64,000 bases of DNA from an uncultured Gammaproteobacteria bacterium (GCA_964633995.1 CAZWKN010000002.1:113119-177118); one strand, 5' to 3'. Positions 21,114 to 39,535 are shown, counted from the stretch's first letter. Notes: generated by a model not told the origin, from the letters alone. Numbers and translations are program-made.

Positions 21114-21116
21114 TCA

Positions 21117-21929
21117 TCAGGGAGTGTTTACTTTAAAGTTTAGTTCTGGATCGAAACGCCATTTCCTTCTGTTGGTATCCGAATAATAATTTAGAAATCT
21201 TAATCGATAAAATACCGCAAATGTGTCTATTAACATCTGGTATACGAAATAAATAAATTTTTTACTGGTAACGGTAGACGCTTTGCCAAAATCGAGTTTC
21301 AATTCAATCGGTGCTTCGTAAATTCTTTTAAAACCTAAGTAATGTGCAACTGCTAATATTTCTATATCAAATGCAAACTCTTTGATAATCAGCCTGGGCA
21401 ATACTTCCTCCAAAACCTGTCTTCGGTAACATTTTAAGCCTGCTTGAGTGTCCCTTATGTTTAAACCAAAGAGAATCTTTACAAGCAGGGAATACACGGT
21501 TGACACTACTTTTCTCTGCCATGGATAGATAACTTTTGAGGCAGGATGACGCTTTGACCCAACGACAATATCTGCGTTGTACCACTCAAAGTGCTCTAGA
21601 ATCATTGAAAGTCCGTTTGGATTGATATCCATACCAGAATCAATAAAGGCAATAATGTCTCCCTTGGATCTGGCCATGCCGTATCGGACAGCATGACCCT
21701 TTCCCCTATTAGTTTCATAGCCCACTACTTTGATGTCTTTAAACCTTTTTGCTAGAGGGAGAGCCTTGTCGTAGGTTTTGTCACTTTTTCCATCAACTAC
21801 ACAAATGATCTCCGACGGGTATCTAAGTTTCTGAAGGACGGCACGAAGGCGTAGTAGTTCACGCCGAATAGTTGCTTCCTGTTTATAGGCAGGTACTATG
21901 ACTGAGAGCAGTCTTACGGCTGAAGTCAT
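21117..21929 (-). CDS. Polyprenyl-phosphate glycosyltransferase (DPM1/GtrB-like GT2)
   Basis: LSVIVPAYKQEATI...IICVVDGKSDKT...NRGKGHAVRYGM...IAFIDSGMD. Confidence 0.8.
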   Translation of the reverse strand: MTSAVRLLSVIVPAYKQEATIRRELLRLRAVLQKLRYPSEIICVVDGKSDKTYDKALPLAKRFKDIKVVGYETNRGKGHAVRYGMARSKGDIIAFIDSGMDINPNGLSMILEHFEWYNADIVVGSKRHPASKVIYPWQRKVVSTVYSLLVKILFGLNIRDTQAGLKCYRRQVLEEVLPRLIIKEFAFDIEILAVAHYLGFKRIYEAPIELKLDFGKASTVTSKKFIYFVYQMLIDTFAVFYRLRFLNYYSDTNRRKWRFDPELNFKVNTP

Positions 21930-23041
21930 GCCACCCAGTAACCATTCGCAAATAAACCCAAGAATACCAGCATAGCCATGATATTACACAAAAAATAAAA
22001 AATTAAAAGTTTTGAACTCAGTTTTGATAAAAAAAGTCCCAAAAGGATAAAGGAGGGAAAACAAGTTAATGCGTATCTGGGCAATGAAGTGAGCGTTCCC
22101 GTAAGCGTGGGCGTAAGTAGACATAAAAAATTGAATATTGAATAGGATGGCCTTTGTTTTAGGAGTGAAATAACTGCTAGTGCAATAAATTCAACCCCAA
22201 CAAAAGCTTCAAGTAGGATAGTGGGGTACATTGGAATAGATTTGTCGACCGTAAGAATCATTTTTACATACCTCCAAATTACTTGATAAGGAAGAACTAT
22301 TTTTTCGCTACGAGACTGGCCAAATAATTTTTGAGCATGAACGAAAGCCAAATAATCTCCTGTGGTTTTATGTAAAAACAACATATATGAAATAAGCCCA
22401 AGAGGGACAAGAACTACCCCAACCAAACTTAAAAGAGAGGCCTTGCTCTCTGATCGCCTTCCAAGCCATTCTAGAAAAAGCGCTGGAAATATAAATATCC
22501 CCACTAGCCTGGTGTTAGCGGCCAGTGCTCCCAAAACACCCGCTAATAACCATTTATTCTTTCTGGAAAAATAAAAACTAGAGACGGTCAAAAGAAAAAA
22601 GACACCCTCGGTATAAACTGAGGTGAAAAAGAAACTTACCGGAAAAGCTAACAAAGCAAGTATGGTTAGATTGATTACTTTTGGGCCATAATCCATTCGA
22701 AGAAGTTTGTTAAAAACAAGTAAACCCACAAAAAAACTTAGTGTCGATATCCACGTACCAGTCAATATTCTATCTTTGAAAATTGGGGCGAATAAATTAA
22801 TTAAACGGGGATAAAGAGGGAAAAAAGCGTGTTGGGCATATCCATAGCCACTAGCAGCAATTGCTAGATAGAGATTGCCGTCAAAGTTCGCTCTAAAGTT
22901 AACAAGTGGATTTGATAAGTAAGTCTGGGTTGCCCCACCAAGATATTGGGTTGTTCGCGGTATGAACTGCCCTGTTAGCGCAACTATACTTACAATTAAC
23001 ACCTCCCACACAGCCACGAAAAATAAAAGTTTTTTAATCAT
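21926..23041 (-). CDS. Polytopic membrane protein, GT-C-like (DUF2029/GT87/PIG-V-like mannosyltransferase type)
   Basis: About 10 TM helices. Immediately downstream of a polyprenyl-P sugar synthase with a 4-nt overlap. Confidence 0.5.
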   Translation of the reverse strand: MIKKLLFFVAVWEVLIVSIVALTGQFIPRTTQYLGGATQTYLSNPLVNFRANFDGNLYLAIAASGYGYAQHAFFPLYPRLINLFAPIFKDRILTGTWISTLSFFVGLLVFNKLLRMDYGPKVINLTILALLAFPVSFFFTSVYTEGVFFLLTVSSFYFSRKNKWLLAGVLGALAANTRLVGIFIFPALFLEWLGRRSESKASLLSLVGVVLVPLGLISYMLFLHKTTGDYLAFVHAQKLFGQSRSEKIVLPYQVIWRYVKMILTVDKSIPMYPTILLEAFVGVEFIALAVISLLKQRPSYSIFNFLCLLTPTLTGTLTSLPRYALTCFPSFILLGLFLSKLSSKLLIFYFLCNIMAMLVFLGLFANGYWVA

Positions 23042-23814
23042 ACGCTCTTTGTAATTTGCCAGAGCTTTATATACGATATTGGAAATCGTAAGCCCGAAAA
23101 TAAAGCAAAGACAAAACCCGCAAAACCATCTACGTACCCCCTATGGCGCAGATAAATGAATAAAAATTCAGTTAATGGTTTTATAAACAAAAAATTGAAC
23201 GTGGATAACGGATGTATTTTTACGTTATCAGTTGCCATAGACTTTGCAATTAAGTCCGTATATCTGTTTAATCTGACAAGATATTTGTCAAAATTTGTGT
23301 CTCCATAATGGAGCAAATTGTTAGTCAAATGACCAACAGGCCCTGAAACTTTAGCTTGTTCATGGACATCCTGTGCCGGTAACGTACCACAAAGCTTTTT
23401 ATATAATCTTAATGTGTAATCCGGATATTGTCCGCCTTTGGTTAAAAACCGATTCAGAAAAAAATTTGACCTGGGTATCCAATAACCGCAGAGTTCGGAA
23501 TGATCTTTGGAAGTCTCAGTAAGAACTTCTGCTGCCAGCTCTGGAGTGACAACCTCGTCGGCATCTAGCTGAAAAATCCATTCGCCAACAGCTGCGTCGA
23601 TGGCCTTTCTTTTGTTGATATGAAAGTTGGGAGGATTAGTGGTTACAATAACACGAGCCTTGTATTTTTTTGCTATTGCAACAGTGGCATCTTCAGATGC
23701 TCCGTCTACAACAACGATCTCGTCTGCAATATGTTTGACTGATTCCAAACATCTTGCAATATTTTGTTCTTCGTTGTGAGTAGCCAAGACCACTGATAAT
23801 CTTTTTTTTGCCAT
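23038..23814 (-). CDS. GT2 glycosyltransferase, WaaE/KdtX-like subfamily
   Basis: LSVVLATHNEEQNIARCLESVKHIADEIVVVDGASEDATVAIAKKYKARV...QLDADEVV. Confidence 0.8.
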   Translation of the reverse strand: MAKKRLSVVLATHNEEQNIARCLESVKHIADEIVVVDGASEDATVAIAKKYKARVIVTTNPPNFHINKRKAIDAAVGEWIFQLDADEVVTPELAAEVLTETSKDHSELCGYWIPRSNFFLNRFLTKGGQYPDYTLRLYKKLCGTLPAQDVHEQAKVSGPVGHLTNNLLHYGDTNFDKYLVRLNRYTDLIAKSMATDNVKIHPLSTFNFLFIKPLTEFLFIYLRHRGYVDGFAGFVFALFSGLRFPISYIKLWQITKSV

Positions 23815-23815
23815 A

Positions 23816-25429
23816 TTAGTTTGAAATTATTTTAAACGCTGGCTCACTATTTAAGAAATTTATTGTCTTGACGACGTTTACTCCGGCTGAAGGAATATCT
23901 TCTGGGGCAGCAACAATCATAGTTGAGTGAATGTCTCGAACTTTTTCCCAAGGAGTCGAAGTAAAGGTATATTTATCAAACTGCCTAACAGTAGAAAAAT
24001 TAAACTTGTCACGAAATGAGAGCTGGTGGTGCCTCTGAAATTTGGCTGGAGGGTAGGCGGAATAAAAAAGGAATAGTATGTATGGTTGATCGTATTTATC
24101 GGTGATGTATACTTTGGAATATTTGTCCTGATTTGACTGTACATAAGACACTAATTGTTTAAAACCATATTCCCAAGCAGAAGGATAGGTCTTGGGGTAG
24201 TGAGCATAATATTCATGTAAATATCTGGAAACTTGCCACACCATACAACTTACATAAATAAGTATGCAAACAACCTTACGCCTTTTGTAAACGAGTGAAA
24301 AGCAATAGTTAACTCCCAAGGCGATAATTATGGTTAATGGAACTATCATGTTTTGCGCTCTTAAGGCGTGGGGGGTTTGGAAAGTAAGAGCTGAAGCAAC
24401 CGGAGCAACTAATAACCAGATCCAGATTAGTTTTGAATAGGGTGTTTGATGTTTGATTAGAAAAATAACTCCAGCGACAAGAAAAAGTGCGTCAGTTATG
24501 TAAAGTAATCCAGTTTCAGGCACTTTGTTTCGTTCAATGACGTCACCGCTTATAAATAGAAAATTTCCATCAAAGTGATCAAAGTAATTCTTAAAATATT
24601 GAATGGAATAGATTACGGGGCGATTGTGAAGCACTTTCGCCATAAGCCCACTAAGTCCTATGCCGTGAAACCCACGTAATTCTCTTACCCTATTTAGTGG
24701 TCCTATATCAGATAACAAACCTACCCCAGAAAACCGAGAAATGGCGTCAGAGAAAAACACGGAGTGAACTAGGGGTAGTAATAATATAGCCGATAGGCCT
24801 AAGCAGAGAAGTAAGTTTTTTAAATTTTGCTTAAAGTGCTGGGGATTAGTTATAAACAATAATATGCCCAACAACGGCACAAGTACGCGAGCAGATTGAT
24901 AGGCATACATGGCAAAAACAAAATTGAGAAGTGAGAATTGAAAATTAAGAATATTTCCTGTTTTTAGCCATTTGATAAATTGCCACATGCCTATTAACAT
25001 CAAGGTTGTAGCCAAATTTACCTCCCAAGCACCACGAGAAAAATGAATGTGCCAGGGCGAAATAGCCAACAAGAGTGCTGAAAGAAAACCTACTCCTTTG
25101 AATAATTCATCTGCCAATAGCCACATGACTATAACGGCAAGTGTTCCCGCAATTACCGAAGGCAAGCGAACAGCAAATTCAGTTAATCCAAATAGTTTAA
25201 CAAAAGGAATTAAGATGTATGCGTATAGCGCGGGCTTGAAATCTCCAAACGATTCTAAGTTTACTGGCCATGCGTGGCCATGCTCGTCCTTGCCTGTTAA
25301 CAGCAACGAATACGCATTGTAACCCAAAGCAGCTTCATCGGCGTTTAAACCTGCCGGGTAATTTACTATCTGCCAGTAACGAAGGATAAAAGCCAGAGAA
25401 ATAATTAAAATAAATATTATTTTTTTCAT
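23816..25429 (-). CDS. GT-C fold membrane glycosyltransferase, PMT/ArnT-like (GT39/PMT_2-type); paralog 1 of 6
   Basis: RYWQI..YPAGLNADEAALGYNAYSLLLTGKDEHGHAWPV...SFGDFKPALYAY...RLPSVIAGTL; about 11 TM helices plus a C-terminal soluble domain. Confidence 0.7.
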   Translation of the reverse strand: MKKIIFILIISLAFILRYWQIVNYPAGLNADEAALGYNAYSLLLTGKDEHGHAWPVNLESFGDFKPALYAYILIPFVKLFGLTEFAVRLPSVIAGTLAVIVMWLLADELFKGVGFLSALLLAISPWHIHFSRGAWEVNLATTLMLIGMWQFIKWLKTGNILNFQFSLLNFVFAMYAYQSARVLVPLLGILLFITNPQHFKQNLKNLLLCLGLSAILLLPLVHSVFFSDAISRFSGVGLLSDIGPLNRVRELRGFHGIGLSGLMAKVLHNRPVIYSIQYFKNYFDHFDGNFLFISGDVIERNKVPETGLLYITDALFLVAGVIFLIKHQTPYSKLIWIWLLVAPVASALTFQTPHALRAQNMIVPLTIIIALGVNYCFSLVYKRRKVVCILIYVSCMVWQVSRYLHEYYAHYPKTYPSAWEYGFKQLVSYVQSNQDKYSKVYITDKYDQPYILFLFYSAYPPAKFQRHHQLSFRDKFNFSTVRQFDKYTFTSTPWEKVRDIHSTMIVAAPEDIPSAGVNVVKTINFLNSEPAFKIISN

Positions 25430-25430
25430 A

Positions 25431-27017
25431 TTATTTTAAGCCGACCACATAGAGCCCTGACGACCCATCGACGTATGGAATAGCCGCAAGCGGAATTAAG
25501 TTTGACTGGTCGGGTGGATGGTCGGGAATCTCATACTTGTCCCCCACTAAAAGCACTGAATTTCTAGTTCGTTCAGCTGGCCAATTAATTTTTTCAAAAT
25601 TAATCCCGTCGAAAAAACTTACCTCACCCACATCACCATAGATGTTATCAACCGATTTGGAATGGGAGAGGAAAAATCTGGGATCAATTTTGTTGTAATA
25701 CAGGAAATAGATATATGGTTGACCCAGGGAGGTGGAAAAAACAATACGATTATATTTATCTTTATTTTGGTTGACGATAGCTACTGCTTGTTTATATGGT
25801 GTCATCCAGTACTTGGAAAAATAGAACGGAGAGTGGACAAAATATAAATCCATAAAGTAGACCGTGCTAAACGCCAGAAAGGCAAAATAGACCAGAGTCA
25901 TTAGTTTGTTTTTAAACATAACCGACAAACCTATACCGCCAATAACCGACAACGGAATAACCATTGGCAAGGACCTAACTCCGGAAACTATATCCCGAGA
26001 CAAAGCTGATGGTAACGGTGAAAGCAGTAACCACAACCAAATTAGTTTATTGCGGTGTGATTTTGACATGATGAGTGCGTATAGTCCTAGTATTATGGGA
26101 ATAACCTCCGGGAAATGAAGATATCCGTAAAAAGGCAGAGCGTGCCTTGGATTTGACCAATCACCCTCACTAAATAAAAATCTAGGAGACAAGTGATTAA
26201 GATAACGTTGGACGATCCCTCTTAGTTGATCGTAGACTTCGGAATGGTATAAAACAAACAACGGACTGCTGGTAGTCGAGGTGTCTTGGTTTAGGATTTG
26301 ATTGATACTGTCTGCTGTTCTGGTGTAGTTAAACAAGCTAAATACCCGAAGTCGACCAGATTGGGTTTTTAAGTTAACGATCAGGGGAAAAACAAATATG
26401 GTCAGCACAGCAAGGGGCCGAACAAGTGTAGTCCATTTTGGTCTTAATGAAACAAGCAAGGCCAATAGGATTAATGGCGTAAACAGCTTAGAGCCTTGAT
26501 ATGTCCAAAAAGTCAGGCCTAGCATGATCGAGGCTAAAACAAATTTTTTTCTTAGGAATAGAGTTGCTCCTAGTGTTGTTAAAAGAAGGGCCAAATTGGC
26601 CTCCCATGCCCCTCGGGAGAAAATAATTGCCCATGGGGAAATGGTGAGCATAACGCTGGCAAACAAACCGGAACGTGTGCCAGATAGATGTGAAGTCAAA
26701 AGATACACCGCGATTATCAGGAGCGTACCCACAATGGCCGAAGGAAGTCGGGTAGAAAATTCGTTCAGGCCGAAGACGGCAGTAAACGGCACTGTAATGT
26801 AGACGTAGAGCCCTGGTTTATAATCGCCAAAAGATTTGAAAACAAGTGGCATTATCTGACCATGTTCATCGGCTCCTGTTTTTAAGAGTGAGAAGGAGTT
26901 ATAACCTAACGCAGCTTCGTCCCAGGTTAAACCAGCGGGTCGATCGGCTAGCCTGATTGTCCTTACAAGAAACGCTGTGGCAATAATAAGTATTAAGAAT
27001 AAATATTTCTTCGTCAT
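25431..27017 (-). CDS. GT-C fold membrane glycosyltransferase, PMT/ArnT-like; paralog 2 of 6 (tandem)
   Basis: RPAGLTWDEAALGYNSFSLLKTGADEHGQIMPL...SFGDYKPGLYVY...RLPSAIVGTL, collinear with 23816..25429. Confidence 0.7.
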   Translation of the reverse strand: MTKKYLFLILIIATAFLVRTIRLADRPAGLTWDEAALGYNSFSLLKTGADEHGQIMPLVFKSFGDYKPGLYVYITVPFTAVFGLNEFSTRLPSAIVGTLLIIAVYLLTSHLSGTRSGLFASVMLTISPWAIIFSRGAWEANLALLLTTLGATLFLRKKFVLASIMLGLTFWTYQGSKLFTPLILLALLVSLRPKWTTLVRPLAVLTIFVFPLIVNLKTQSGRLRVFSLFNYTRTADSINQILNQDTSTTSSPLFVLYHSEVYDQLRGIVQRYLNHLSPRFLFSEGDWSNPRHALPFYGYLHFPEVIPIILGLYALIMSKSHRNKLIWLWLLLSPLPSALSRDIVSGVRSLPMVIPLSVIGGIGLSVMFKNKLMTLVYFAFLAFSTVYFMDLYFVHSPFYFSKYWMTPYKQAVAIVNQNKDKYNRIVFSTSLGQPYIYFLYYNKIDPRFFLSHSKSVDNIYGDVGEVSFFDGINFEKINWPAERTRNSVLLVGDKYEIPDHPPDQSNLIPLAAIPYVDGSSGLYVVGLK

Positions 27018-28576
27018 AGTGCAGTAATATTAAAGGCGGTTGTCCCGTCTAAAAAGAGAATTTTTCCCAAGTCCGCACCTGACTTGGGATGATCTTGACT
27101 GGAAAACACAAGCACATGTTTTCCAGACGATGCCGAAATAGATTGGATGTCCCAATCGTTGACGAATTTAAACTTGTCGAAACCATCTACCCAGTACCAA
27201 TTGGCATGATAATCCCAGGCGAAATTAGGATCTTTTAATAATTTGTCCGAACTCCATCGCAAATTCCATAGCAAAAATTCATGTGGCTCTGCGTGACGTT
27301 TGGTAATAATAATTTCATCATATTCGGAATAATGGTGTCTGACAAATTCCGCCAACTGAGAATAGCCATATTGCCAACTAGCTGAATACATTTTAGGATA
27401 TTGAGAGAAATAGTAAAAAAAATAATTTGCACTAAGTGTTAGATAAAGTATTACAGTAGAAATCAGAATAATTTTACTGTATTTGGTCGCTACGAATACT
27501 AATCCCGAAGCGGTAACTATTTGGACGATTGGCAGCATGGTAGTGGCCCGAATAACAGCATATTGATCACGAGTTATGGCGGCAGGTAAGGGAGCCAGTA
27601 AAAGCCAAGTTAATAATAATTTATCTTTTCTGAACAATAAAAGGGTTAGGCCAATGTAAAAGAAGGGCAGACTTACAATAGGTAAAACTCCAAAGTGAGG
27701 AATGCTGTACTGGTATTGGGTTCCACCTGATAAAAACAAAAACTTGGGAGAAAAGTAACCAACATAGTTGGTAAGCACCTTAGTTACTACAAATAGTGGC
27801 CTGTTATAAACCAGGCGCGACAACAAAGCTGGTAATCGAGAAGTGTTTCTTTGGTGTTCTATTTGACCGATAGCGCCGGTGTCTAAAATACCTACCCATG
27901 TGCTCCGCGCCCGAGATTGAGGAGAAAATAGAATAACAACCGCTGGAATGAAAAACAGCACAATCCACAACCAGGTCATTTTTGATCTAATAAATTTAGG
28001 TATTTGGCTTGCCATAAGCAGGGGTGAGAAAATTCTGGTGTTGTGGTAAGCATAAAGACTTAGTCCGCTAAAAAGAGCTGAAAATGAATAGTTGTTATTG
28101 AGAATGTAAACTAACCCCAAAGATGAAAGAAGTACTGACCAATTCGATTGGAAAACGGCTCTTGATGGAAAGAAAGTCCAGGGATCCATGGCCATAAATA
28201 AAGCGGATAATACGGCTATTTTCTTATTTTTGCTCCATAGATATGCGGCATGAAATACAATAAAAATACAGAGTGTACCGATAAGTGCATGTGGCAATCT
28301 AGCTGAAAAATCCGACGGACCCAATAATGCAAATACTGCGGAGGTGAAATAAAGATTTAACGGCAAGGGATAATCGCCATAAGCTCTAAAATTGCCTATC
28401 GGCAAGATTTTTCCCCACTGATCTGCTCCTGTATGCAGGAGTGAAAGTGCATTATAGGCATGACTTACTTCGTCCCAGTTTAATGCAGGAGGAAAGGATT
28501 CTAAATGGTACAACCGCAAAAAACCACCTACGGCAATTATCAGGCTTAAAACTAAAAGAGTGCGAAAGCGGTCCAT
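27014..28576 (-). CDS. GT-C fold membrane glycosyltransferase, PMT/ArnT-like; paralog 3 of 6 (tandem)
   Basis: FPPALNWDEVSHAYNALSLLHTGADQWGKILP...RLPHALIGTL. Confidence 0.65.
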   Translation of the reverse strand: MDRFRTLLVLSLIIAVGGFLRLYHLESFPPALNWDEVSHAYNALSLLHTGADQWGKILPIGNFRAYGDYPLPLNLYFTSAVFALLGPSDFSARLPHALIGTLCIFIVFHAAYLWSKNKKIAVLSALFMAMDPWTFFPSRAVFQSNWSVLLSSLGLVYILNNNYSFSALFSGLSLYAYHNTRIFSPLLMASQIPKFIRSKMTWLWIVLFFIPAVVILFSPQSRARSTWVGILDTGAIGQIEHQRNTSRLPALLSRLVYNRPLFVVTKVLTNYVGYFSPKFLFLSGGTQYQYSIPHFGVLPIVSLPFFYIGLTLLLFRKDKLLLTWLLLAPLPAAITRDQYAVIRATTMLPIVQIVTASGLVFVATKYSKIILISTVILYLTLSANYFFYYFSQYPKMYSASWQYGYSQLAEFVRHHYSEYDEIIITKRHAEPHEFLLWNLRWSSDKLLKDPNFAWDYHANWYWVDGFDKFKFVNDWDIQSISASSGKHVLVFSSQDHPKSGADLGKILFLDGTTAFNITAL

Positions 28577-30120
28577 ATGAGAACTATAAATAACCCAAAT
28601 AAACTTAGTAAATTGCCAATATGTCTTACGTCAGTGTCCTTAAATGATAGCTTAACAATGTGAACCCCGCTGGGAACTTTTAGTGAGACTAGCCCAGAAG
28701 CAGATGGCGTGATCGGGGTAGGTTTTGAATCTAGTTGAGCCGTCCAGCCGGGGAAGTAAACGACTGGCAATAACACCCGGGTTGATTCGTTGGGTACACT
28801 GACAGTAAAACTGTTGACCGAATTGCCTCGGTTGGCTACTAAAACAAACGGTGACAAAGCGGGAGCGAACTGAGTTGGAGGGTTACCAGCGATTTTTGGC
28901 CAATAATCTTTGTGGGCTGTCCTGCTTTCGTCCCAAAACCTACCTGAAAAGAATTGGTTGTCTGATAGATTAAGCCAAATGTCAGGACGAAAAAAAGAAA
29001 AATTGGTAATGATTATCAAAAGTAATAAACCGGTGATCAAGTAACGATTGGCCAACTTACTTGCCAAAGCTCCACCAGCCATAGAGATAAAAAAGATGCC
29101 TACGCCCACATACCTCCAGGGGAATTGGATGAATTTTAAAAAAGGTAACAAATTCCAAATAAAAGCTGATTTTCCATGGGCCATAAAGAGGGCCAATAGA
29201 CCTAGGAAAACAAACCCTACCGCTTTCTTGTTTCGGGTAACAATAACGGCCAGAAGTGCAACCGCCCATTGAATTTGGCCTAATGAGATACTAAGGAATT
29301 TTTTAGCCCATAGCGAGGCCCCGTAACCCCAGTATCTGGAAATAAACAATTCCTTAAGCGTGGCGAAATGAATATGATAGTCGTAATAACCCTGGGTTGT
29401 CCTGGCTAAATCAACCAGATGGCTCTCAAATATCACCGGAAAAATATAGTAGGAAGAGAGGATCACGGATACAATACCAGCAAGCATAAGTTTAAAAAAA
29501 GACCAAAATTTGTGCTGGAATACCCAATAAATTGCCAAAAAGGGTAGGAACATGATTACAGATAGATTGTGAGTGGTGATAAGTCCGGCCAGACAAAGAC
29601 TGAAGGCAATTAAGTATTTTGAATTTTTGGTCTCTAAAAATTTGTCCAAGGCTAAAAGAATCAGAGGAAAAAAAACAAAGGCGAGCGACTCAGGCAACGC
29701 AGCCCGAACCCAGACATCGGTTGACCTATATGGTGCATAGGTATAAAGCAATGCTGATACAAGTCCGCCCCAACTCCCCCAGTGGTGTTTGCCAAATAAA
29801 TACATGGCGACTCCGGAAGCTAGTAGTGAAAAGGCGAATGCAGCTTTCGTTGAATCCAAGATCGACAAACCCAACAAATGAAACATTTCTCCTAGCCAAA
29901 AACCGGTTTGGGGATAATAGTTGAAAAGGGGTTCGCCATAACCCATTTCTGCGTCTGAGGTCCAACGGCAGGGAAATTGACGTTCTTGGACACATTTATC
30001 AAACTCGAATAACCTAAAATGGGGGAAATCCTGCATGGTGTAGATACCTGACCTAAACATGAGCGAGCAGGTGGGAAGCGCGAGAAGTAAGAAGATTAGG
30101 ACCCACTTGAACCGTGCCAT
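28552..30120 (-). CDS. Polytopic membrane protein of a 'PTPS-related/YfhO-like' GT-C-type family with C-terminal beta-rich domain; paralog A of 3
   Basis: N-terminal GIYTMQDFPHF...FDKCVQERQFPCRWTSDAEMGYGEPLFNYYPQ, shared with 50642..52309 and 57570..59204. The family name is from memory of PF10131-like proteins and is not verified. Confidence 0.45.
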   Translation of the reverse strand: MARFKWVLIFLLLALPTCSLMFRSGIYTMQDFPHFRLFEFDKCVQERQFPCRWTSDAEMGYGEPLFNYYPQTGFWLGEMFHLLGLSILDSTKAAFAFSLLASGVAMYLFGKHHWGSWGGLVSALLYTYAPYRSTDVWVRAALPESLAFVFFPLILLALDKFLETKNSKYLIAFSLCLAGLITTHNLSVIMFLPFLAIYWVFQHKFWSFFKLMLAGIVSVILSSYYIFPVIFESHLVDLARTTQGYYDYHIHFATLKELFISRYWGYGASLWAKKFLSISLGQIQWAVALLAVIVTRNKKAVGFVFLGLLALFMAHGKSAFIWNLLPFLKFIQFPWRYVGVGIFFISMAGGALASKLANRYLITGLLLLIIITNFSFFRPDIWLNLSDNQFFSGRFWDESRTAHKDYWPKIAGNPPTQFAPALSPFVLVANRGNSVNSFTVSVPNESTRVLLPVVYFPGWTAQLDSKPTPITPSASGLVSLKVPSGVHIVKLSFKDTDVRHIGNLLSLFGLFIVLIWTAFALF

Positions 30121-30137
30121 AGCTCTATTATAGCTGG

Positions 30138-31751
30138 TTATGGCAGTTTGGGGAGTTTCTCAGCAACTGTTATTGTGGGTTCGCCGTTGGGAAGGTCGAT
30201 GTGAAAATAGTTTGGGAAATTCGGCGGAAACTCATCTGATTTACCCACAAACAAAGTGGGTACACGTACCTCCTCTTTGGGATGAATACTTCCAAACCTG
30301 TATTTGCCCAGGCGATAGCCGTCTAACTGATCTAGAAATTTAAGATTTTTGGCCTCAAAAACTAGCCAGGTGTTTGATGCAGCCTGATAGTCCTTGGGGG
30401 GGATTTTTTGAAAAAATGCCAAATAGATGTGTGGTTCTGACAAACCGGTACTAATTTGAACTTCTGAAAACCTGTCGGCAATATCAATAAATCTAGTAAA
30501 CGCCTGGTTTCGACCAAATAGCATGGATTGGCCTATTCTGTAAGAAGAAGTGTAAAAATACTCCTGTAAAAAAAACACGCAGGAGATGAAATAAAGAAGA
30601 CTAATAACTGGTAGATACTTTTTCTTTATAAGTGATATGCCACTGGCGGCGGCGATTGTCAAAAACGGAATCATGGACGCAGCTCTATTTGCTGCGTATC
30701 CCGGGCCTTTGGCAAGAGCAGCTGGTAAGGGGGCGACCAACAACATGGTCAGTATCAGGATGTTTGACGAATTTGGCTTTTTGATAGTAGAGATGCAGAA
30801 AAAAAGTAGAAATGGTAATTCAATTAAGTAAAGTAATCCTGTCCCAGGGAGCAATCCATATGTGCCTTCTGCGGGACCAGTTGTAAACAAAAATTGTGGA
30901 GAAAAATAAGTAAGATAGTTTTGAGTAAAAAGGCGAAAGACGTAGACTGCTTTATTGGAAAAAAATCTGGATACCGCATCGGGTAAACCTGCGTTTCTTG
31001 ACATAAATCTCATATCGCTGACGTATTGCCATTTGTCAGTAGGACTTAGTATTGAAACATCGGACACCCTGTGGACGCCTGCACCAAAATATGAGAGTAC
31101 GGCAGGAAGTGAGAGTACAGCTAAAACAATGATGAATTTAGTAAACCCAAGAAATGGTTTTTTTATATGAGCAAACGCTAAAAAGAGCAGTAGTATCGGA
31201 GTGATTAATCTAGCCGAATGATACGAATAAAGATTGATGGCAAAGACGACCCCTGACCAAATAAAAGAATTTATCAAAAATAAATAAATCCCAAGAGGAA
31301 GAAAAAAGGTGACAAGATTGGCCTCAAATGCCCCCCGCGATAGACCTATTGACCAGGGAGAAATGGCTGTTAATGCCGCAGTTATCAGGGCGGTGTTGTC
31401 GGACGTCAGTTTTTTTGACAATAAATAGACCGAGACTATGGCCAGTGTCCCAATTAGAGCATTTGGCAAACGTGTGGCAAATTCGTTTAAGCCGAACAAT
31501 TTTATTGACGGTAGACTTAGAAAGACATATAGCGGCATTTTGTAATCACCAAACGATCTTAAATTTTTATAGGGCAACCTATACCAAGGTGTCCCCCATT
31601 CGTCCATTCCTGTTTGTAAAATAGAATAAGCGTTGTAGCCAAAGGCGGCTTCATCAGGTGTAAACCCTGGTGGATTAGTTGATAGTTTGTAAACACGGAG
31701 AAATAGCCCAATGGCTACTACAAAACTAAGTATTAAAACATGACGATTCAT
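30138..31751 (-). CDS. GT-C fold membrane glycosyltransferase, PMT/ArnT-like; paralog 4 of 6
   Basis: NPPGFTPDEAAFGYNAYSILQTGMDEWGTPW...SFGDYKMPLYVF...RLPNALIGTL. Confidence 0.7.
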   Translation of the reverse strand: MNRHVLILSFVVAIGLFLRVYKLSTNPPGFTPDEAAFGYNAYSILQTGMDEWGTPWYRLPYKNLRSFGDYKMPLYVFLSLPSIKLFGLNEFATRLPNALIGTLAIVSVYLLSKKLTSDNTALITAALTAISPWSIGLSRGAFEANLVTFFLPLGIYLFLINSFIWSGVVFAINLYSYHSARLITPILLLFLAFAHIKKPFLGFTKFIIVLAVLSLPAVLSYFGAGVHRVSDVSILSPTDKWQYVSDMRFMSRNAGLPDAVSRFFSNKAVYVFRLFTQNYLTYFSPQFLFTTGPAEGTYGLLPGTGLLYLIELPFLLFFCISTIKKPNSSNILILTMLLVAPLPAALAKGPGYAANRAASMIPFLTIAAASGISLIKKKYLPVISLLYFISCVFFLQEYFYTSSYRIGQSMLFGRNQAFTRFIDIADRFSEVQISTGLSEPHIYLAFFQKIPPKDYQAASNTWLVFEAKNLKFLDQLDGYRLGKYRFGSIHPKEEVRVPTLFVGKSDEFPPNFPNYFHIDLPNGEPTITVAEKLPKLP

Positions 31752-32182
31752 AGTCTATACAAGCTGGTAAAAGCCAGTGAATTCAAATCATCAACATACA
31801 CCTCCAAGTGGGAGGGATCAGATGGGGATATGGTTATGGTTAGTTTGTCTGTGGAATTTATTGGAGGAAATTGAAAACGAAGATTGGATGGATCTCCAGT
31901 ATTCCGACCCGAAAAAGTGGAAGTGAATAAACGAGTATTGGTTGAATCGGTTATCTCAAACATAAATTGATCAGTATTTTGCAATCCAGGATTTTTGAAG
32001 CTTAAAACAACAATGTTTGTTCCCGAGTGCCTTGGCGAAAACGTCGACGAAATTGGACCTATTATTTGGGTAAAGTGAGTTCCTGGCTTTGAATAATCGA
32101 GCCTGTTTTTGACAAAAAACCTAGGGATGAGAGAAGAGACGCCCAAAAAGATAATTGGAAGCAAGAATAGACTATACTTCAT
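31748..32182 (-). CDS. Small signal-peptide/anchored protein (144 aa), Ser/Thr-rich, predicted beta-rich; unknown
   Basis: MKYSLFLLPIIFLGVSSL then a hydrophilic S/T/N-rich domain. 4-nt overlap with the upstream GT-C gene implies co-translation with the glycosyltransferases. Confidence 0.45.
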   Translation of the reverse strand: MKYSLFLLPIIFLGVSSLIPRFFVKNRLDYSKPGTHFTQIIGPISSTFSPRHSGTNIVVLSFKNPGLQNTDQFMFEITDSTNTRLFTSTFSGRNTGDPSNLRFQFPPINSTDKLTITISPSDPSHLEVYVDDLNSLAFTSLYRL

Positions 32183-33320
32183 ATTCAGCCTTTCGGTCTA
32201 AAACCATCCACAAAGACGCGGCAGCAAGTATGGTGTTTGAACAATTGAGTAATAACGTCAAAATGTGTTTATCGATTAGGCTGGAAATCGGCGGGAGTAA
32301 CAATAATCCCGGATCAAACGGGGAAAAAATACCCCAGGTTAGAAACGGGTCCGAAGATAATATAAGCGACCCAAACCATCCCAACAAAAACAAAGCCCCG
32401 GGAAGCCAATTACGAGTATTGACCAAGTACAAGCTGATAAAGGGCACGGCCCACAAAGCCCATTGGGGGTTAAATCTAATGCCTAGCAAGACAAGTAAAA
32501 TTATCGGGAGGTAAAACGTTGCTGGTTTTTGAGTTGATTTAAAGGCGTATAGCCAAACCATAATAAGGGCTCCTGGAATTAGTAGGATGGCTTGATCAAA
32601 TCCAATCGAGAGTGATAATTGAAACAGCCTTTGGCTAAGCCCCGATAGAAGAGTATCCTGAAAAAATGCTGGTGTGGTTACAAAAGGGAGCAAGGTGACG
32701 AGATATGTACCTACACCCAATATAAATAATTTTGGTTTTTTTAACCAAAGGGGCAATAGTAAAAGCGGATAAGCCTTAAATGAACCCCCTAACCCCAATA
32801 AAATTACTGCCCAAACAGGAGAAACCACTAAACTGGCAACAGTCAGCAGAACCGGAAGAATATCAATTTGACCCATTAAAACGGTAACATAAATGCTAAT
32901 TGGATTAAAAAACCAAAGCGCCAATAAGAGAATTTTATTTTTGGGGCGGACTGCCTTTGAGACCAGAAGTCCGGTGAGTATGTGTAACAAGATCAGAGGT
33001 AATTTGGTTAGAAACAGAAAGGTGTGGATACCAGAGACGTCGACGGCGGTATTACCCATCGCAAGCCATGACCTGAAACCCAATCCCGCAAATAAGTTTA
33101 CGATAGGAAATAACAGACCAAAAATAAGATAGGTAAGCGGTGGATATACAAATGGCCCGGAGCTGCTAGGATGTAGGGCTGTGTAACTGTAGATATTGAA
33201 GACCCCCGATGAAAGATGTTTGGATAGTGAATAAATTATCTTTAAGTCGGGGTGGAAGTAAAACGGGGCCAGAAGTAAATATGTAAACGCAGCTAATAAA
33301 AATATGTGTTTAACCTTCAT
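32172..33320 (-). CDS. Polytopic membrane protein, GT-C-like (DUF2029/GT87-like)
   Basis: WFFNPISIYVTVLMGQIDILPVLL motif shared with 33310, 40325 and 49368 paralogs. Confidence 0.5.
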   Translation of the reverse strand: MKVKHIFLLAAFTYLLLAPFYFHPDLKIIYSLSKHLSSGVFNIYSYTALHPSSSGPFVYPPLTYLIFGLLFPIVNLFAGLGFRSWLAMGNTAVDVSGIHTFLFLTKLPLILLHILTGLLVSKAVRPKNKILLLALWFFNPISIYVTVLMGQIDILPVLLTVASLVVSPVWAVILLGLGGSFKAYPLLLLPLWLKKPKLFILGVGTYLVTLLPFVTTPAFFQDTLLSGLSQRLFQLSLSIGFDQAILLIPGALIMVWLYAFKSTQKPATFYLPIILLVLLGIRFNPQWALWAVPFISLYLVNTRNWLPGALFLLGWFGSLILSSDPFLTWGIFSPFDPGLLLLPPISSLIDKHILTLLLNCSNTILAAASLWMVLDRKAEYEV

Positions 33321-34497
33321 GGTGATAACTATAGTGTAGTAAATTGAAAAAGAAAATCAAAATTATGCCAAGTGTTGAAAGATTGACAAGCCAGGTAGTT
33401 TCCAAAATTGCTCTAAGCATAGGAATAAAGGGTTCCCACCAGTTGTGGTACATATTTGCAAAATTAAAGAGTGAGACAAGCACGATACTGAATAGTTGAG
33501 ATTTGTTCTTGGTAGAGGTGATCGCCAAAAAAGGAATAGCAGCCCCAAGATATCTCTCGTGCATTCTGGTTAAGAATAGAAACGCGGCATAGGTTGTTAG
33601 CCCAAAAGCCCAATAGATATTGGTTTTGGAAATTTTTTTTATAATAAATATTAGACATACTGCAAATAGTAGATAACCTGCTAGTCTATAATTGGTATCG
33701 TGTATTTTCCCCAAGCCAGTTAATAAAGACCAGAAGTTAAATGCGTGATCAGTTACATAATCAGATCCTGATCCGGTTTGAATCTTGTTTACATAAGTTG
33801 AAAAGGTAAAGGAAAACGGCAAAGAGATGATAAAAAATGTGGTCAAAAAAACTACAAATGACTGAATGATTGTTTTAGGTTTGTGAGACCTTAGGAAAAA
33901 TAGAGCATAAAGAGGAATGAAAATTATGGTGGACTGCTTAGTGAGTAACGCCAGAGTAAAAAAACTTACAGAAACAAACGGCTTTTTTATCAGATGGAGG
34001 CTGAGAAGTGTAAACAAGACGGGGATTGACTCAATCTGTCCCCAATAGGAGCTGTTGTAAACCAAAGCCGGATTAAGACAAATCAACATCATGGAAAGCC
34101 AATAATTTTTGGTAATTTTGTAAATAAGCACAGCCAATCCCACGTCTGCCAAAATAGCCCAAAACTTAAAAAATCCAGGGTGAGTTGCTGGACGTTCTAG
34201 AAACCAGACCAAGCGAGATGGATAGAGCTGAAACGAAGAATTGAGATGGGTTGAGAGGCCGATGGTCGATCTGTACAGATATTCCGAACCGGTAAATAAA
34301 GCCAAAGCTATCGGAGGATAGGTCGGGGTCATGGTGTGATACTTGTAAACAAACTCCCGAGAGTACACACCCACTGGACCGTTGGTTAGGATATCTATAC
34401 CCCAGGAAATGTGGTTATTCACATCGCCACTGAAACCTGAAAATATAAACAAACACCGGACGATAAAAGCAATTATGATGAGAGAAAAATATTTCAC
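33310..34497 (-). CDS. Polytopic membrane protein, GT-C-like (DUF2029/GT87-like); tandem paralog
   Basis: LNPALVYNSSYWGQIESIPVLFTL... Confidence 0.5.
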   Translation of the reverse strand: MKYFSLIIIAFIVRCLFIFSGFSGDVNNHISWGIDILTNGPVGVYSREFVYKYHTMTPTYPPIALALFTGSEYLYRSTIGLSTHLNSSFQLYPSRLVWFLERPATHPGFFKFWAILADVGLAVLIYKITKNYWLSMMLICLNPALVYNSSYWGQIESIPVLFTLLSLHLIKKPFVSVSFFTLALLTKQSTIIFIPLYALFFLRSHKPKTIIQSFVVFLTTFFIISLPFSFTFSTYVNKIQTGSGSDYVTDHAFNFWSLLTGLGKIHDTNYRLAGYLLFAVCLIFIIKKISKTNIYWAFGLTTYAAFLFLTRMHERYLGAAIPFLAITSTKNKSQLFSIVLVSLFNFANMYHNWWEPFIPMLRAILETTWLVNLSTLGIILIFFFNLLHYSYHHEG

Positions 34498-36098
34498 TGG
34501 CTCTTGGTAACAAGATAAAAAATTGGTTGGTTGTAGGGGTTAGTCGAGGTGGAAAGAACTTTTACTCCTGCCGGAGGACTAGTGCGCCAATCCCAATCTC
34601 CGGCAACATCGTCTCTTTGACTAATTAAGTAAACTGCGTTGGGAAAAAGCCTAGATCCAAATTGAACATTTTTGGAGTCGTCGGAAAAATTGCCAAAAAA
34701 GTATTTTCCATCGAGCGAAAAGCCATTGTAGCCCGGTAGAATTTCGTTTTCCGGTTGATCCTTTTTGAAAATCGCCTGAAACCTTAAGGGTGAATAGCGC
34801 GTATAAAATAAAAATCTTATTAGAGAAGGCTCGTAACTATTGTTAATGATTACCCTAGAATAATCTGGCGATAATTTGGCAATATCTATCATTGCTTGTT
34901 TAAAGCCTACATGCCACCATCTCCAAGAAGTTTGCGGATAATGAACAAGGTAATAGTGTGCTCCCGACAAAAAGTTGATACTCAAAAGAACAAGTGTGGA
35001 GAGGAATAGTAACTTGGTTTTTTTTAGATAAAGTAACCCAGAGCCCAAAATGACTGCCAACGGAATGGTCATTAAAAATGATCTGGTTGCATGCCAACTA
35101 CCGTCAATTGTTAAAGCGGCGGGAATAGGGGCTAGCAACAACCAAAATATCCACATAAATTCACGTTTTTTGAACAGGTATATCAATCCTAAAAGTAGTA
35201 GGGGTGAGGTCAGGGGTAATAATTCACCAAAATATTGCATATTGTGGCGAACTGTTGGGTCGCCCCTAACAAAAAGAAATTCGGTAGAAAAACTACGTAA
35301 ATAATTCGTTAAAAACCGCAGAGAAATAGTTTCAACTTTGTTGTGAAACAGGCGCTCAAGTAGGGAGTTGTCGCCATTTCGAAGCGAAAGCACTGTGTCA
35401 GTCAATTCACGACTTTGTAGAATGCTGAGTGTTTGAAATCTCTCGGTCGCTTTGCCAAAGACAATACTAGTCAAAAAGGGGGCTGTTAAAATTAACAATA
35501 ACGCAATCGAAACAAATTGAGGACGAACTTTTTTGTAAAGATGAAGACCTAGAATTAGTAGTGGGGTGAATACTGTGGCAGTGCTATAGGTATAAAAGGT
35601 AAGGGCGAACAGAACGGTCGAAAGGAGAAATTTTCGCCGAATGAACATTACAACTGCGGCCAGAGTGAGATAGGCTAGGATTACAACCTCAAACGCGGCG
35701 CGTGAATAGTGAATATGCCATGGCATAAATGCAATAAACGCTGCGGAATATAACGCAAGGGATTTAGACCTTGATACGAGGTAGACTAGACCAAACAACA
35801 ACACAGGGGTAAGCGAACCAAACACAACCTCTGGTAACCTGACTCCCCATTCCGTGTTACCAAATATTAAAATAGACGGCACGGTGGCATAAATAAGCAA
35901 AGGAGCTCGCCATTCCGCCAAGGAATGGATATAGACCGGAAGTGGTTGCCCGTAAAAATCTTTTCCAGTCTTAAGTAATGAGTATGCCTGGTATCCTACA
36001 TCTATCTCGTCGCCAAAAAGTTCCGGAGGCGAATGGGTGAGCATTCCACCCCTTAAAATACTCGAAATAATCAGGATTACTGACAACAATAAGGGCAT
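34494..36098 (-). CDS. GT-C fold membrane glycosyltransferase, PMT/ArnT-like; paralog 5 of 6
   Basis: HSPPELFGDEIDVGYQAYSLLKTGKDFYGQPLPV...RLPEVVFGSL. Confidence 0.7.
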   Translation of the reverse strand: MPLLLSVILIISSILRGGMLTHSPPELFGDEIDVGYQAYSLLKTGKDFYGQPLPVYIHSLAEWRAPLLIYATVPSILIFGNTEWGVRLPEVVFGSLTPVLLFGLVYLVSRSKSLALYSAAFIAFMPWHIHYSRAAFEVVILAYLTLAAVVMFIRRKFLLSTVLFALTFYTYSTATVFTPLLILGLHLYKKVRPQFVSIALLLILTAPFLTSIVFGKATERFQTLSILQSRELTDTVLSLRNGDNSLLERLFHNKVETISLRFLTNYLRSFSTEFLFVRGDPTVRHNMQYFGELLPLTSPLLLLGLIYLFKKREFMWIFWLLLAPIPAALTIDGSWHATRSFLMTIPLAVILGSGLLYLKKTKLLFLSTLVLLSINFLSGAHYYLVHYPQTSWRWWHVGFKQAMIDIAKLSPDYSRVIINNSYEPSLIRFLFYTRYSPLRFQAIFKKDQPENEILPGYNGFSLDGKYFFGNFSDDSKNVQFGSRLFPNAVYLISQRDDVAGDWDWRTSPPAGVKVLSTSTNPYNQPIFYLVTKSQ

Positions 36099-36117
36099 TT
36101 CTGATATTATACATTTA

Positions 36118-36993
36118 ATGTTGTCGGTAATAATAATCTCTTACAATACCAAGGATGTTACGTTGGAGTGTTTGAGCAGGCTAAATAAATCTAAAGGGGT
36201 CAAGTATGAAACTATTGTGGTAGACAACGCCTCTACCGATGGGTCTGCTCAAGCTATTCTGAAGACTTTTCCGGATGTTAAATTAGTTGAAAGTAAAGTA
36301 AATTTGGGATTTGCTGGCGGAAATAATTTGGGAATGAAAATGGCCAAAGGGGAAAAGTTGATACTACTGAATTCAGATTGTTTCGTAAACCCGGACACTT
36401 TAGCCAATTTACCTGACTTAGACGTGGTCGGGTGCAAACTACTAAATAAGGATGGTTCGGTTCAACAATCTTGGGGCTATTTTCCAACGCTTAGAAGGAT
36501 TACCCAAATGATGTTTTTTGTCGATAATTTTCCTATTATCCGCAAGTTCATCGATTCGATTCACGTAAGAGATGTGTCCAGGTACCAGACGCAACATGAG
36601 GTCGACTGGGTTACAGGGGCGTTTGTAATGGTAAGAAGGATTATCTTTGAAACGGTGGGGGGTATTGATGAAAAGTATTTTATGTATGGAGAAGAAATGG
36701 AGTGGATGTATAGAATAAAAAAAGCTGGTTTTAAGATTTGGTATTCTCCGGAACCCCTGGCTACACACTTGTTAGGCGCTAGTTCGTCAAACCGAGCACC
36801 TGCTGTCGTTGGGGAAATTAAGGGATGGATGTATTGGTTTGCAAAACACAACCCGGTTTGGCAACAGAAACTCCTGCCTTTGGTAATTTTGATTGGATGT
36901 TTGCTTAGAGTTGTGCTTAAGCCAGCTATGTCGAAGTATTATTTGCAAACAATTTCCGAAATTTTTGCCCCGTCCAGGAAACGAGTGCCATAA
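36118..36993 (+). CDS. GT2 family glycosyltransferase
   Basis: MLSVIIISYNTKDVT...TIVVDNASTDGS...LILLNSDCFV. The track ORF starts at 36037; the internal start at 36118 avoids overlap with 34494..36098. Confidence 0.8.
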   Translation: MLSVIIISYNTKDVTLECLSRLNKSKGVKYETIVVDNASTDGSAQAILKTFPDVKLVESKVNLGFAGGNNLGMKMAKGEKLILLNSDCFVNPDTLANLPDLDVVGCKLLNKDGSVQQSWGYFPTLRRITQMMFFVDNFPIIRKFIDSIHVRDVSRYQTQHEVDWVTGAFVMVRRIIFETVGGIDEKYFMYGEEMEWMYRIKKAGFKIWYSPEPLATHLLGASSSNRAPAVVGEIKGWMYWFAKHNPVWQQKLLPLVILIGCLLRVVLKPAMSKYYLQTISEIFAPSRKRVP

Positions 36994-37783
36994 CGACCGA
37001 TTTTCCCCAGCCGTTATACCAAATTCCGGCTTCAGTACGATATCTTTCGGATGATGATGAGGTGTTGGGAATATTCAACATTTTTCTAATTGGATATATT
37101 AATGTTTCGATTAGATTTCGATATTTTTGGTTTTGGATTTGTTTCGAACTTTGGCCGTGTTCATGGACGATAGTTACATCACTATCAAAATATACTTTCA
37201 AGCCAGCTGCGCGGATTCGCCGGCAATAGTCCAAATCTTCGTAGTACATAAACACTTTTTCGGTAAATAAACCAATCTTGGTTAATGTGGACTTTGGAAA
37301 AAACATACATGCTCCTGAAACCGCATTTACCTCAGACGTAAGATTTGGTGTATATTTCGGAGTGTTTGTCAAAATTCTAGGTTCCAAAAAAACCGAACCC
37401 TGGGGATTTCCGTTTGGATCGACAAATTTGGGTCCCATGACACCCATGTCCAAATGGCGCCGGGTAAATTCTAAGGCTTTTGAAAAAAAATCTTTAGGAA
37501 TTTGCGTGTCGGGGTTGAGAAGCAAAATATAATCACCCGTCGCCTTCTTCAGACCTTGGTTTACGGCTCGAGGGAAACCTAAATTTTTGCTATTTGCAAC
37601 GATCGGTGCGATTTGCAAATCCTTGGCGACCTGGACTGAGTTGTCTGATGAGGCGTTATCGATGACTATAGTTTCAAGATTTGGATATTTGGTGGCAAGA
37701 ATTGATTGTAAACAACGCTTGAGAGAGTTTGCCACGTTCCAGCTGACAATAATTACACTAATTTTAGAAATTGATTTTTTCAC
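36926..37783 (-). CDS. GT2 family glycosyltransferase (GTG start)
   Basis: VKKSISKISVIIVSWNVANSL...TIVIDNASSDNS...ILLLNPDTQI. Its 3' end overlaps the convergent GT2 36118..36993 by 68 nt. Confidence 0.8.
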   Translation of the reverse strand: MKKSISKISVIIVSWNVANSLKRCLQSILATKYPNLETIVIDNASSDNSVQVAKDLQIAPIVANSKNLGFPRAVNQGLKKATGDYILLLNPDTQIPKDFFSKALEFTRRHLDMGVMGPKFVDPNGNPQGSVFLEPRILTNTPKYTPNLTSEVNAVSGACMFFPKSTLTKIGLFTEKVFMYYEDLDYCRRIRAAGLKVYFDSDVTIVHEHGQSSKQIQNQKYRNLIETLIYPIRKMLNIPNTSSSSERYRTEAGIWYNGWGKSVVMALVSWTGQKFRKLFANNTST

Positions 37784-39465: not shown

Positions 39466-39535
39466 ATACTTCTATAAATTAATGATTCTAGGATACGAAA
39501 ATCGAGGACTACCCCTTGATGGTCGGATTAGATTC

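Follow-up and report, generated by a model that had tools for sequence, protein, structure and literature searches.

Closest described systems and the present locus

The described systems closest to the genes analysed here are ArnT (undecaprenyl-phosphate L-Ara4N transferase, glycosyltransferase family GT83; PDB 5EZM/5F15), a single gene in the arn operon; the protein O-mannosyltransferases or PMT enzymes (GT39; Pmt1/Pmt2/Pmt4); ALG3/ALG9/ALG12/ALG6/8/10 and EmbA/B/C and AftA-D, whose genes are mostly dispersed; the three-component Gtr systems (GtrA/GtrB/GtrC, CsbB-GtcA-YfhO and GtlA/GtlB), usually with one GT-C protein each; and Agl23 (TIGR03663), a GT-C-like protein of archaea that has been connected with the flipping of lipid-linked sugars. 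The genes themselves are six paralogs encoding GT-C membrane glycosyltransferases in a 64,000-nucleotide stretch of DNA (GCA_964633995.1, CAZWKN010000002.1:113119-177118); the whole stretch is called the window below, and positions are counted from its first letter. Five of the paralogs lie on the minus strand between 23816 and 36098, and the sixth lies on the plus strand from 46415. The best homologues (Amesbacteria/Microgenomates) suggest that the source organism belongs to the Microgenomates, within the candidate phyla radiation (CPR/Patescibacteria).

The present family shares 12% identity with ArnT and matches no NCBIfam ArnT model; its host appears to be a monoderm-like CPR bacterium without the lipid A acceptor of ArnT, and it is distinguished further by a PMT-like DE motif and by five to six conserved paralogs in place of a single gene. 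Compared with the PMT enzymes (12-19% identity), it lacks the MIR and PMT_4TMC domains, and four of the six proteins pass the PMT_2 model. No sequence membership of GT22, GT58, GT53 or GT85 links it to the ALG and Emb/Aft enzymes, and its genes stand in one apparent collinear operon whereas theirs are scattered. Like the Gtr systems, the locus combines GT2-family proteins resembling GtrB or dolichol-P-mannose synthase (DPMS) with GT-C proteins, including a YfhO-like one; unlike them, it has about 22 GT-C or candidate GT-C genes in the window, and its only flippase is of the Wzx type, no GtrA/GtcA-family flippase having been found among the small open reading frames (ORFs) of the window that were tested. 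Agl23 provides the sole NCBIfam model matched by the paralogs, in five of six and over the N-terminal ~120-190 residues; the Agl23 family, however, spans about 435 positions and lacks the C-terminal domain of the present family.

A search for papers (CPR/Microgenomates with GT-C, PMT, GT39 or glycosyltransferase) found none describing the array, which is weak evidence because most subscription journals lay outside the search. It is well supported that this is a previously uncharacterised but unsurprising GT-C family in a well-known superfamily; its conserved multi-paralog operon, set in a glycan cluster of very large size, offers a good way into CPR surface biology. CPR/Patescibacteria, whose genomes are tiny, are believed to spend their lives attached to other cells, and to our knowledge almost nothing is known of their surface covering. 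Judged by gene content, the entire window forms one supercluster for glycan synthesis, which the preliminary description of this DNA did not recognise; a genome that is probably close to 1 Mb in size (judging from a relative's 1.0-Mb contig) would give the full 64 kb to this task. The locus thus offers a defined gene set for probing the Microgenomates surface glycoconjugate and its part in attachment or phage recognition, and a natural GT-C series for studying donor and acceptor specificity in external loops 1, 4 and 5.

Sequence family, fold and predicted topology of the six paralogs

The six genes are listed here by array position, which also gives each type its name; the coordinates of the minus-strand genes start at their stop-codon ends.

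23816-25429, minus strand: GT-C paralog 1 (23816-type), 537 amino acids (aa); Pfam PMT_2 46.8 bits; last family member in the putative operon
25431-27017, minus strand: GT-C paralog 2 (25431-type), 528 aa; PMT_2 36.8 bits
27014-28576, minus strand: GT-C paralog 3 (27014-type), 520 aa; PMT_2 22.8 bits (below cut-off); BLASTP to the family E 1e-37 to 1e-61
30138-31751, minus strand: GT-C paralog 4 (30138-type), 537 aa; PMT_2 37.2 bits, PMT 32.7 bits
34494-36098, minus strand: GT-C paralog 5 (34494-type), 534 aa; PMT 27.4 bits, PMT_2 26.2 bits; first family member in the putative operon
46415-48013, plus strand: GT-C paralog 6 (46415-type), 532 aa; in a separate plus-strand run of membrane genes; DE kept; no Pfam match

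The preliminary description had reported five genes of ~530 aa and a sixth on the opposite strand, and ORFs of 520-537 aa were found at exactly the coordinates it gave. It had called the five a tandem array; they do lie within 12 kb, but the series is broken up by a YfhO-like gene, a small ORF and two other membrane genes. When all window ORFs of at least 200 aa were compared by BLASTP, all against all, exactly these six formed one cluster, with full-length alignments (E 1e-24 to 1e-80; 24-34% identity; for the 46415-type against the other five, E 1e-20 to 1e-52), and two unrelated PMT_2 genes (12348-13727 and 59201-60715) fell outside it. The six-way alignment (27-34% identity to the first member) contains 34 invariant columns. 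An N-terminal architecture common to all copies had been proposed, and two of its elements are invariant in six of six: the block P..(5)..DE....Y.......TG.D..G...P (P25, D31, E32, Y37, T45, G46, D48, G51 and P55) and, in the 'RLP....G' block, R88, L89 and G95. The third, 'SFGDyKP', is only partly conserved, with the variants AYGDYPLP (27014-type), SLAEWRAP (34494-type) and SFDDYKP (46415-type). Full-length alignments with E-values down to 1e-80, together with the invariant polar motifs, therefore exclude chance or hydrophobic, low-complexity similarity among the six. The family is common across the Microgenomates and large in metagenomes: when 1.84 billion cluster representatives were searched with a profile, 6274 members were found at E<=1e-30. 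Across 245 aligned members, D31, E32, D48, R88, G95, S131, R132, R232, G295, G307, R357 and G372 are 100% invariant.

PMT_2 (PF13231; gathering cut-off 26.1 bits) and/or PMT (PF02366) is matched by five of the six paralogs, in four at or above the PMT_2 cut-off; the PF02366 matches, found in two, are partial (residues 11-172 of the 30138-type and 75-155 of the 34494-type). With no PMT_4TMC or MIR domain in any of the six (Pfam, E<=0.01), and no NCBIfam ArnT match, the paralogs fall outside GT39 as strictly defined and outside GT83. Nor do they belong to TIGR03663, which five of them match weakly at 34.1-42.1 bits (E 6e-11 to 1.5e-8) against a cut-off of 126.25 bits; the 46415-type matches no NCBIfam model. 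By sequence, the six are linked to solved structures only marginally: their profile matched ArnT 5EZM alone among PDB sequences (E 2.7e-4 over 83 residues), and with a deeper profile this match fell to E 4.6.

Here it is only the comparison of folds that informs. An AlphaFold2 model of the 23816-type protein, built from a 53-sequence alignment (pLDDT 89.3, pTM 0.90), was matched by Foldseek to STT3, PglB, AglB, ArnT, ALG12, Pmt4 and Emb, and is about equally distant from GT22, GT66, GT83 and GT39 (ALG12, STT3, ArnT and PMT). On comparison with ArnT, STT3, PMT and ALG12, the modelled N-terminal transmembrane (TM) module and first external loop are those of the GT-C_A class, and it is close to certain, given this model, that the six paralogs are ancient members of one family of GT-C_A-fold membrane glycosyltransferases. 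In public annotations such proteins go under the names 'glycosyltransferase family 39' or 'ArnT-like'; the comparable designation in the preliminary description, 'PMT/ArnT-like GT-C', holds at the level of the GT-C superfamily fold but not beyond it, where four of six pass PMT_2 and the six fit none of the curated family models for ArnT or PMT.

From the predicted helices and the distribution of K/R, each protein would span the membrane ~11 times, starting in the cytoplasm and ending on the external side. Consistent with this, the short loops that would face the cytoplasm bear K/R and at most one D/E each in six of six paralogs, and the invariant polar residues fall in predicted external loops. 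Among the paralogs, conservation is highest in external loop 1 (residues 21-66; 47% identity); its first helix (H30-45) opens with the conserved acidic pair D31-E32, which the fold class and the positive-inside pattern would place on the external side. External loop 4 (residues 227-312; 23% identity), where model confidence is lowest (pLDDT 65-72), and the C-terminal domain (21%) are the most variable segments; the former is predicted to be long and flexible, and the latter to be an external alpha/beta domain of ~120 aa.

Conserved gene order and proposed function

Gene order was compared with five independent loci from four organisms: Amesbacteria (L002; GCA_001773695.1), two other metagenome-assembled genomes (L004, CAZFGX010000001.1, a 1.0-Mb contig; L005, CAYOOO010000006.1), Blackburnbacteria (L007), and L006, which is the same sequence as the L004 genome, in its upstream part. 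In all four organisms positional orthologues 43-63% identical occur in the same order, and the closest homologues of each paralog (45-63% identity) are proteins of the Microgenomates group, from Amesbacteria, Woesebacteria, Blackburnbacteria, Shapirobacteria and 'Patescibacteria group'. The match to L002 runs as follows, with the window gene first.

30138-type: L002 5297, 53% identity
YfhO-like (28552): L002 6886, 50%
27014-type: L002 8433, 49%
25431-type: L002 10001, 54%
23816-type: L002 11599, 63%
GT2 (23038): L002 13221, 56%
PIG-V-like (21926): L002 15085, 51%
GT2 (21117): L002 16215, 63%

L004 and L005 have the same order, and the L004 match runs on through a 602-aa secreted protein, a short-chain dehydrogenase/reductase (SDR), a GT2 and a GT4. 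L006 carries Wzx, the 52245-type, three GT2, a GT4, a GT87-like gene, a divergent GT2, the 34494-, 33310- and 32172-types, the small ORF and the 30138-type, an order that mirrors the window from 55311 down to 30138; in L007 the 34494-type, 30138-type, YfhO-like, 27014-, 25431- and 23816-type genes, a GT2 and a GT4 are directly adjacent. By type, same-position orthologues of the 23816-type are 63% (L002), 53% (L004), 46% (L005) and 46% (L007) identical, and those of the 30138-type 53% (L002), 48% (L004) and 44% (L007). The 25431-type has 1249 homologues, the best named being Amesbacteria/Microgenomates (50-56%), with collinear orthologues present; the 34494-type has its own orthogroup (45-58% in Amesbacteria, Woesebacteria and Blackburnbacteria), and the 46415-type its own smaller one (best 53%, Amesbacteria).

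In a neighbour-joining tree of the family members from these loci, the orthogroups separate cleanly and each array position forms its own clade; the duplications are therefore older than the split of these lineages. The claim of the preliminary description that the copies are diverged and not recent duplicates is borne out in the same way, the paralogs being 24-34% identical to one another and 43-63% identical to their positional orthologues. Its 'lineage-specific expansion', if meant as private to the source genome, has to be given up, the same copies in the same order being found in Amesbacteria, Blackburnbacteria and the two other genomes. On the sequences compared, the expansion is a Microgenomates-group feature: an ancient collinear operon with one orthogroup per array position.

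L004 and L005 are titled 'uncultured Gammaproteobacteria bacterium' yet bear a Microgenomates-type supercluster collinear with Amesbacteria; these labels are probably wrong.

The orthogroups are distinguished by residues near the predicted catalytic loops. When ~120 members each of the 25431-type and the 34494-type were compared for positions at least 90% conserved within each group and different between them, 22 positions were found, nine in external loop 1 (flanking DE and FGDxKP) and three in external loop 5, the highest densities in the protein. Across genomes the 23816-type carries the signature LNADEAALGY / FGDFKP / LTFQ-TPHALRA and the 34494-type LFGDEIDVGYQ / SLAEWRAP / LTIDGxxHATR, and all orthogroups retain D31/E32, D48, R88, S131/R132, R232 and R357. 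The 27014-type and its closer orthologues have K65->P, E136->Q and D296->G, with DE kept. It is plausible, as the preliminary description proposed, that the paralogs make several distinct linkages or use several acceptors, a reading with which the group-specific residues around the catalytic loops agree.

The likeliest function, which we consider moderately probable, is that the GT-C paralogs glycosylate a surface glycoconjugate outside the cytoplasm, in successive and non-redundant steps, from polyprenyl-phosphate sugars. Such donors had been supposed before, and the context lends support: four GT2 proteins of the window, which form one four-member BLASTP cluster, best match DPMS, ArnC and GtrB.

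13733-14452, minus strand: DPMS/ArnC-like GT2, 239 aa; ArnC E 5.7e-18, DPMS E 6e-14
21117-21929, minus strand: GT2, candidate polyprenyl-phosphate sugar synthase, 270 aa; DPMS 5mlz E 2.8e-13, also GtrB 5ekp and ArnC; 63% identical orthologue in L002
61617-62390 and 62387-63187, minus strand: two adjacent DPMS/ArnC/GtrB-like GT2; Pfam GT2; 61617-62390 DPMS E 4.7e-13

These cytoplasmic enzymes would load single sugars onto polyprenyl phosphate; the lipid-linked sugars would be flipped to the external face of the membrane; and each GT-C paralog would then move a sugar to its own position or linkage on an extracytoplasmic acceptor, perhaps a wall-associated glycopolymer or a glycoprotein glycan. 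D31/E32 would serve either as catalytic base or to coordinate a metal, and the lipid phosphate would be bound by conserved Arg/Lys. The paralogs would thus carry out successive, non-redundant steps, like ALG3/9/12 in the endoplasmic reticulum lumen or Emb/Aft in mycobacteria, which would explain the retention of every copy as its own orthogroup, the differences in the loops and the presence of donor-synthase genes. The five paralogs and the YfhO-like GT-C protein would belong to one tightly packed collinear operon within a surface-glycan supercluster of ~45-60 kb. Minus-strand genes run nearly unbroken from 45035 down to ~6503 with 4-bp overlaps or 1-17-bp gaps, and this spacing alone is what suggests operon structure and co-transcription.

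Other explanations have been considered. PMT-like protein O-glycosyltransferases, each serving different secreted or surface proteins (S-layer proteins, pilins or adhesins) like the fungal PMT1/2/4 subfamilies, are suggested by the DE motif, by the GmaR/SunS-like GT2 next to the array and by a weak PgfM1 match. We nevertheless think them unlikely: the PMT matches cover part of the N-terminal region and come without PMT_4TMC or MIR, the model is no nearer to PMT than to ALG12, STT3 or ArnT, the setting of Wzx, many GT2 and GT4, GT87-like and PIG-V-like genes resembles polymer or oligosaccharide assembly, and no candidate acceptor protein was identified in the cluster. Four to five of the paralogs occur strictly together and in one order in the genomes compared, stop and start codons overlap, suggesting that translation is coupled, and GT-C enzymes known to form heterodimers are among the fold matches. 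These observations could indicate a hetero-oligomeric complex like Pmt1-Pmt2 or EmbA-EmbB, in which some subunits would be mainly structural or regulatory; the 27014-type, whose closer orthologues have lost K65, E136 and D296, would be an example. This too has a small chance of being right, and it is compatible with stepwise glycosylation, but with D31, E32, D48, R88, S131/R132, R232 and R357 invariant in six of six, none of the paralogs looks dead.

We consider it very improbable that the paralogs, or some of them, resemble Agl23 in translocating polyprenyl-phosphate sugars, as flippases or scramblases, and are not transferases. Translocation of lipid-linked glycans has been reported for Haloarcula Agl23 (PMC11182771), five of the six paralogs match TIGR03663 at their N-termini, and no GtrA-type flippase was found among the small window ORFs tested; against this, the matches score 34-42 bits where the cut-off is 126 and cover a generic GT-C N-terminal module, catalysis accounts better for the invariant acidic and basic residues predicted to be external, and for the substitutions near them that mark each orthogroup, and five to six different flippases per operon are hard to rationalise. 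A recent, lineage-private amplification (for surface variation or phage evasion, for example), or low-complexity similarity, has nothing in its favour beyond the tandem arrangement and is refuted by the paralog and orthologue identities and the clean orthogroup tree given above.

Several points weigh against stepwise glycosylation itself. Characterised enzymes are just 10-15% identical to the paralogs, and donor and acceptor are therefore not transferable by homology. The topology and the placement of residues are predictions from secondary structure and the positive-inside rule. The 27014-type, lacking K65 and E136 in its closer orthologues, may work differently from the others. Among the small ORFs of the window that were tested there is no GtrA-type flippase for polyprenyl-phosphate monosaccharides; near the array neither a glycoprotein substrate nor a ligase for wall polymers was evident; and a promoter and terminator scan of 19000-38000 gave results no different from those for shuffled sequence.

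A wider extension of stepwise glycosylation, offered tentatively and in our judgement rather doubtful, is that the five co-operonic paralogs, the YfhO-like protein and ~15 other GT-C-like proteins form an extracytoplasmic assembly line that builds a class-specific methylated or carbamoylated surface glycan in bacteria with genomes of just ~1 Mb, and that equals mycobacterial arabinan synthesis or the eukaryotic ALG pathway in complexity; a glycan coat, rather than protein, would then be a main determinant of the Microgenomates surface and of attachment to hosts or particles.

Genes interleaved with the array and the wider cluster

The genes that interrupt the array or continue the conserved block downstream of it are the following.

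19305-21113, minus strand: secreted protein of no known family, 602 aa; signal-peptide-like N-terminus; no Pfam match; end of the conserved block
21926-23041, minus strand: PIG-V/Mannosyl_trans2-like polytopic membrane protein, 371 aa; 51% identical orthologue in L001/L002 with a weak PF04188 match
23038-23814, minus strand: GT2 directly downstream of the array, 258 aa; Glycos_transf_2; solved relatives GmaR (E 3e-13) and SunS
28552-30120, minus strand: YfhO/PTPS-related GT-C-like membrane protein, 522 aa; PTPS_related 26.8 bits, YfhO 26.6 bits; within the array
31748-32182, minus strand: small membrane-anchored protein, 144 aa; no Pfam match; conserved accessory gene
32172-33320, minus strand: polytopic membrane protein, GT87/DUF2029-like GT-C candidate, 382 aa; itself without a Pfam match
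33310-34497, minus strand: polytopic membrane protein, PIG-U/ALG6-like GT-C candidate, 395 aa; its L006 orthologue has a weak PIG-U and a faint Alg6_Alg8 match

The YfhO-like gene, overlooked in the preliminary description, has same-position orthologues in L002 (50%), L005 (42%) and L007 (41%) and two paralogs in the window (50642-52309, plus strand; 57570-59204, minus strand), making three YfhO/PTPS-related genes in all. The small protein at 31748-32182 has homologues in place in L007 (37%, E 2e-24), L004/L006 (33%) and L002, which share the motif SGRNxGD...RFQFPP; its single N-terminal TM anchor, beta-rich domain and lack of a Pfam match rule it out as a GtrA flippase. Orthologues of 32172-33320 in L001/L002, L006 and L007 (44% identity in L007) bear PF09594 GT87 matches, and the gene has a window paralog at 40325-41497; that of 33310-34497 is at 49368-50645. 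In Blackburnbacteria (L007 6148-8226) the 33310-34497 orthologue is fused to a GT2 domain in a protein of 692 aa, which suggests that the 33310-type membrane protein works directly with a GT2.

Downstream of the array, the GT2 at 23038-23814 has an orthologue in the same place in L002, L004, L005 and L007. It belongs to a three-member GT2 family (with 42507-43286 and 44133-45035, all minus strand) that among solved structures comes closest to GmaR and SunS, which glycosylate proteins or peptides directly; part of the cluster could accordingly modify proteins. The PIG-V-like protein weakly matches an NCBIfam family of surface glycopolymer formation. The secreted protein at 19305-21113 has a 43% identical orthologue in the same place in L004; acceptor, processing enzyme and glycan-binding protein are conceivable roles for it. 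Upstream, a divergent GT2 at 36037-36993, also present in L006, is the sole plus-strand gene inside the long minus-strand run; its listed GTG start overlaps the 5' end of 34494-36098 by 62 bp, and the true start probably lies further downstream.

In the window as a whole, ~22 polytopic membrane proteins are of the GT-C type or candidates for it: the six paralogs, two other PMT_2 proteins, three YfhO/PTPS-related, one weakly AftD-like, one PIG-V-like, two GT87-like, two PIG-U/ALG6-like and five without a family match. They are accompanied by ~20 soluble glycosyltransferases, including 14 GT2 (three paralog families and one singleton) and ~5 GT4, by an SDR and by the following genes.

607-2631, 3650-4336, 8564-9358 and 14458-15297, minus strand: four S-adenosylmethionine (SAM) methyltransferases
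37780-39465, minus strand: NodU/CmcH-type carbamoyltransferase
53833-55311, minus strand: Wzx-type polysaccharide flippase, 492 aa; Polysacc_synt_3 E 2.9e-49; 53% identical orthologue in L006
55327-56619 and 56616-57560, minus strand: S-adenosylhomocysteine hydrolase and PfkB kinase
4280-6547, 45078-46436 and 48010-49371, plus strand, and 52245-53855 and 63133-63999, minus strand: polytopic membrane proteins without any Pfam match

The five membrane proteins without a Pfam match may represent unrecognised GT-C-like or polymerase/ligase families; that at 52245-53855 has a 51% identical orthologue beside the Wzx gene in L006. The methyltransferases, carbamoyltransferase and S-adenosylhomocysteine hydrolase hint at a glycan bearing O-methyl and carbamoyl groups and at enzymes for SAM recycling encoded within the cluster itself; the carbamoyltransferase block (36926-40328) is missing from the syntenic stretch in L006. 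The small gene at 61261-61617 (minus strand), which directly follows the DPMS-like GT2 pair on its downstream side, belongs by its product to PF05635, the '23S rRNA-intervening sequence protein' family (E 1e-10).

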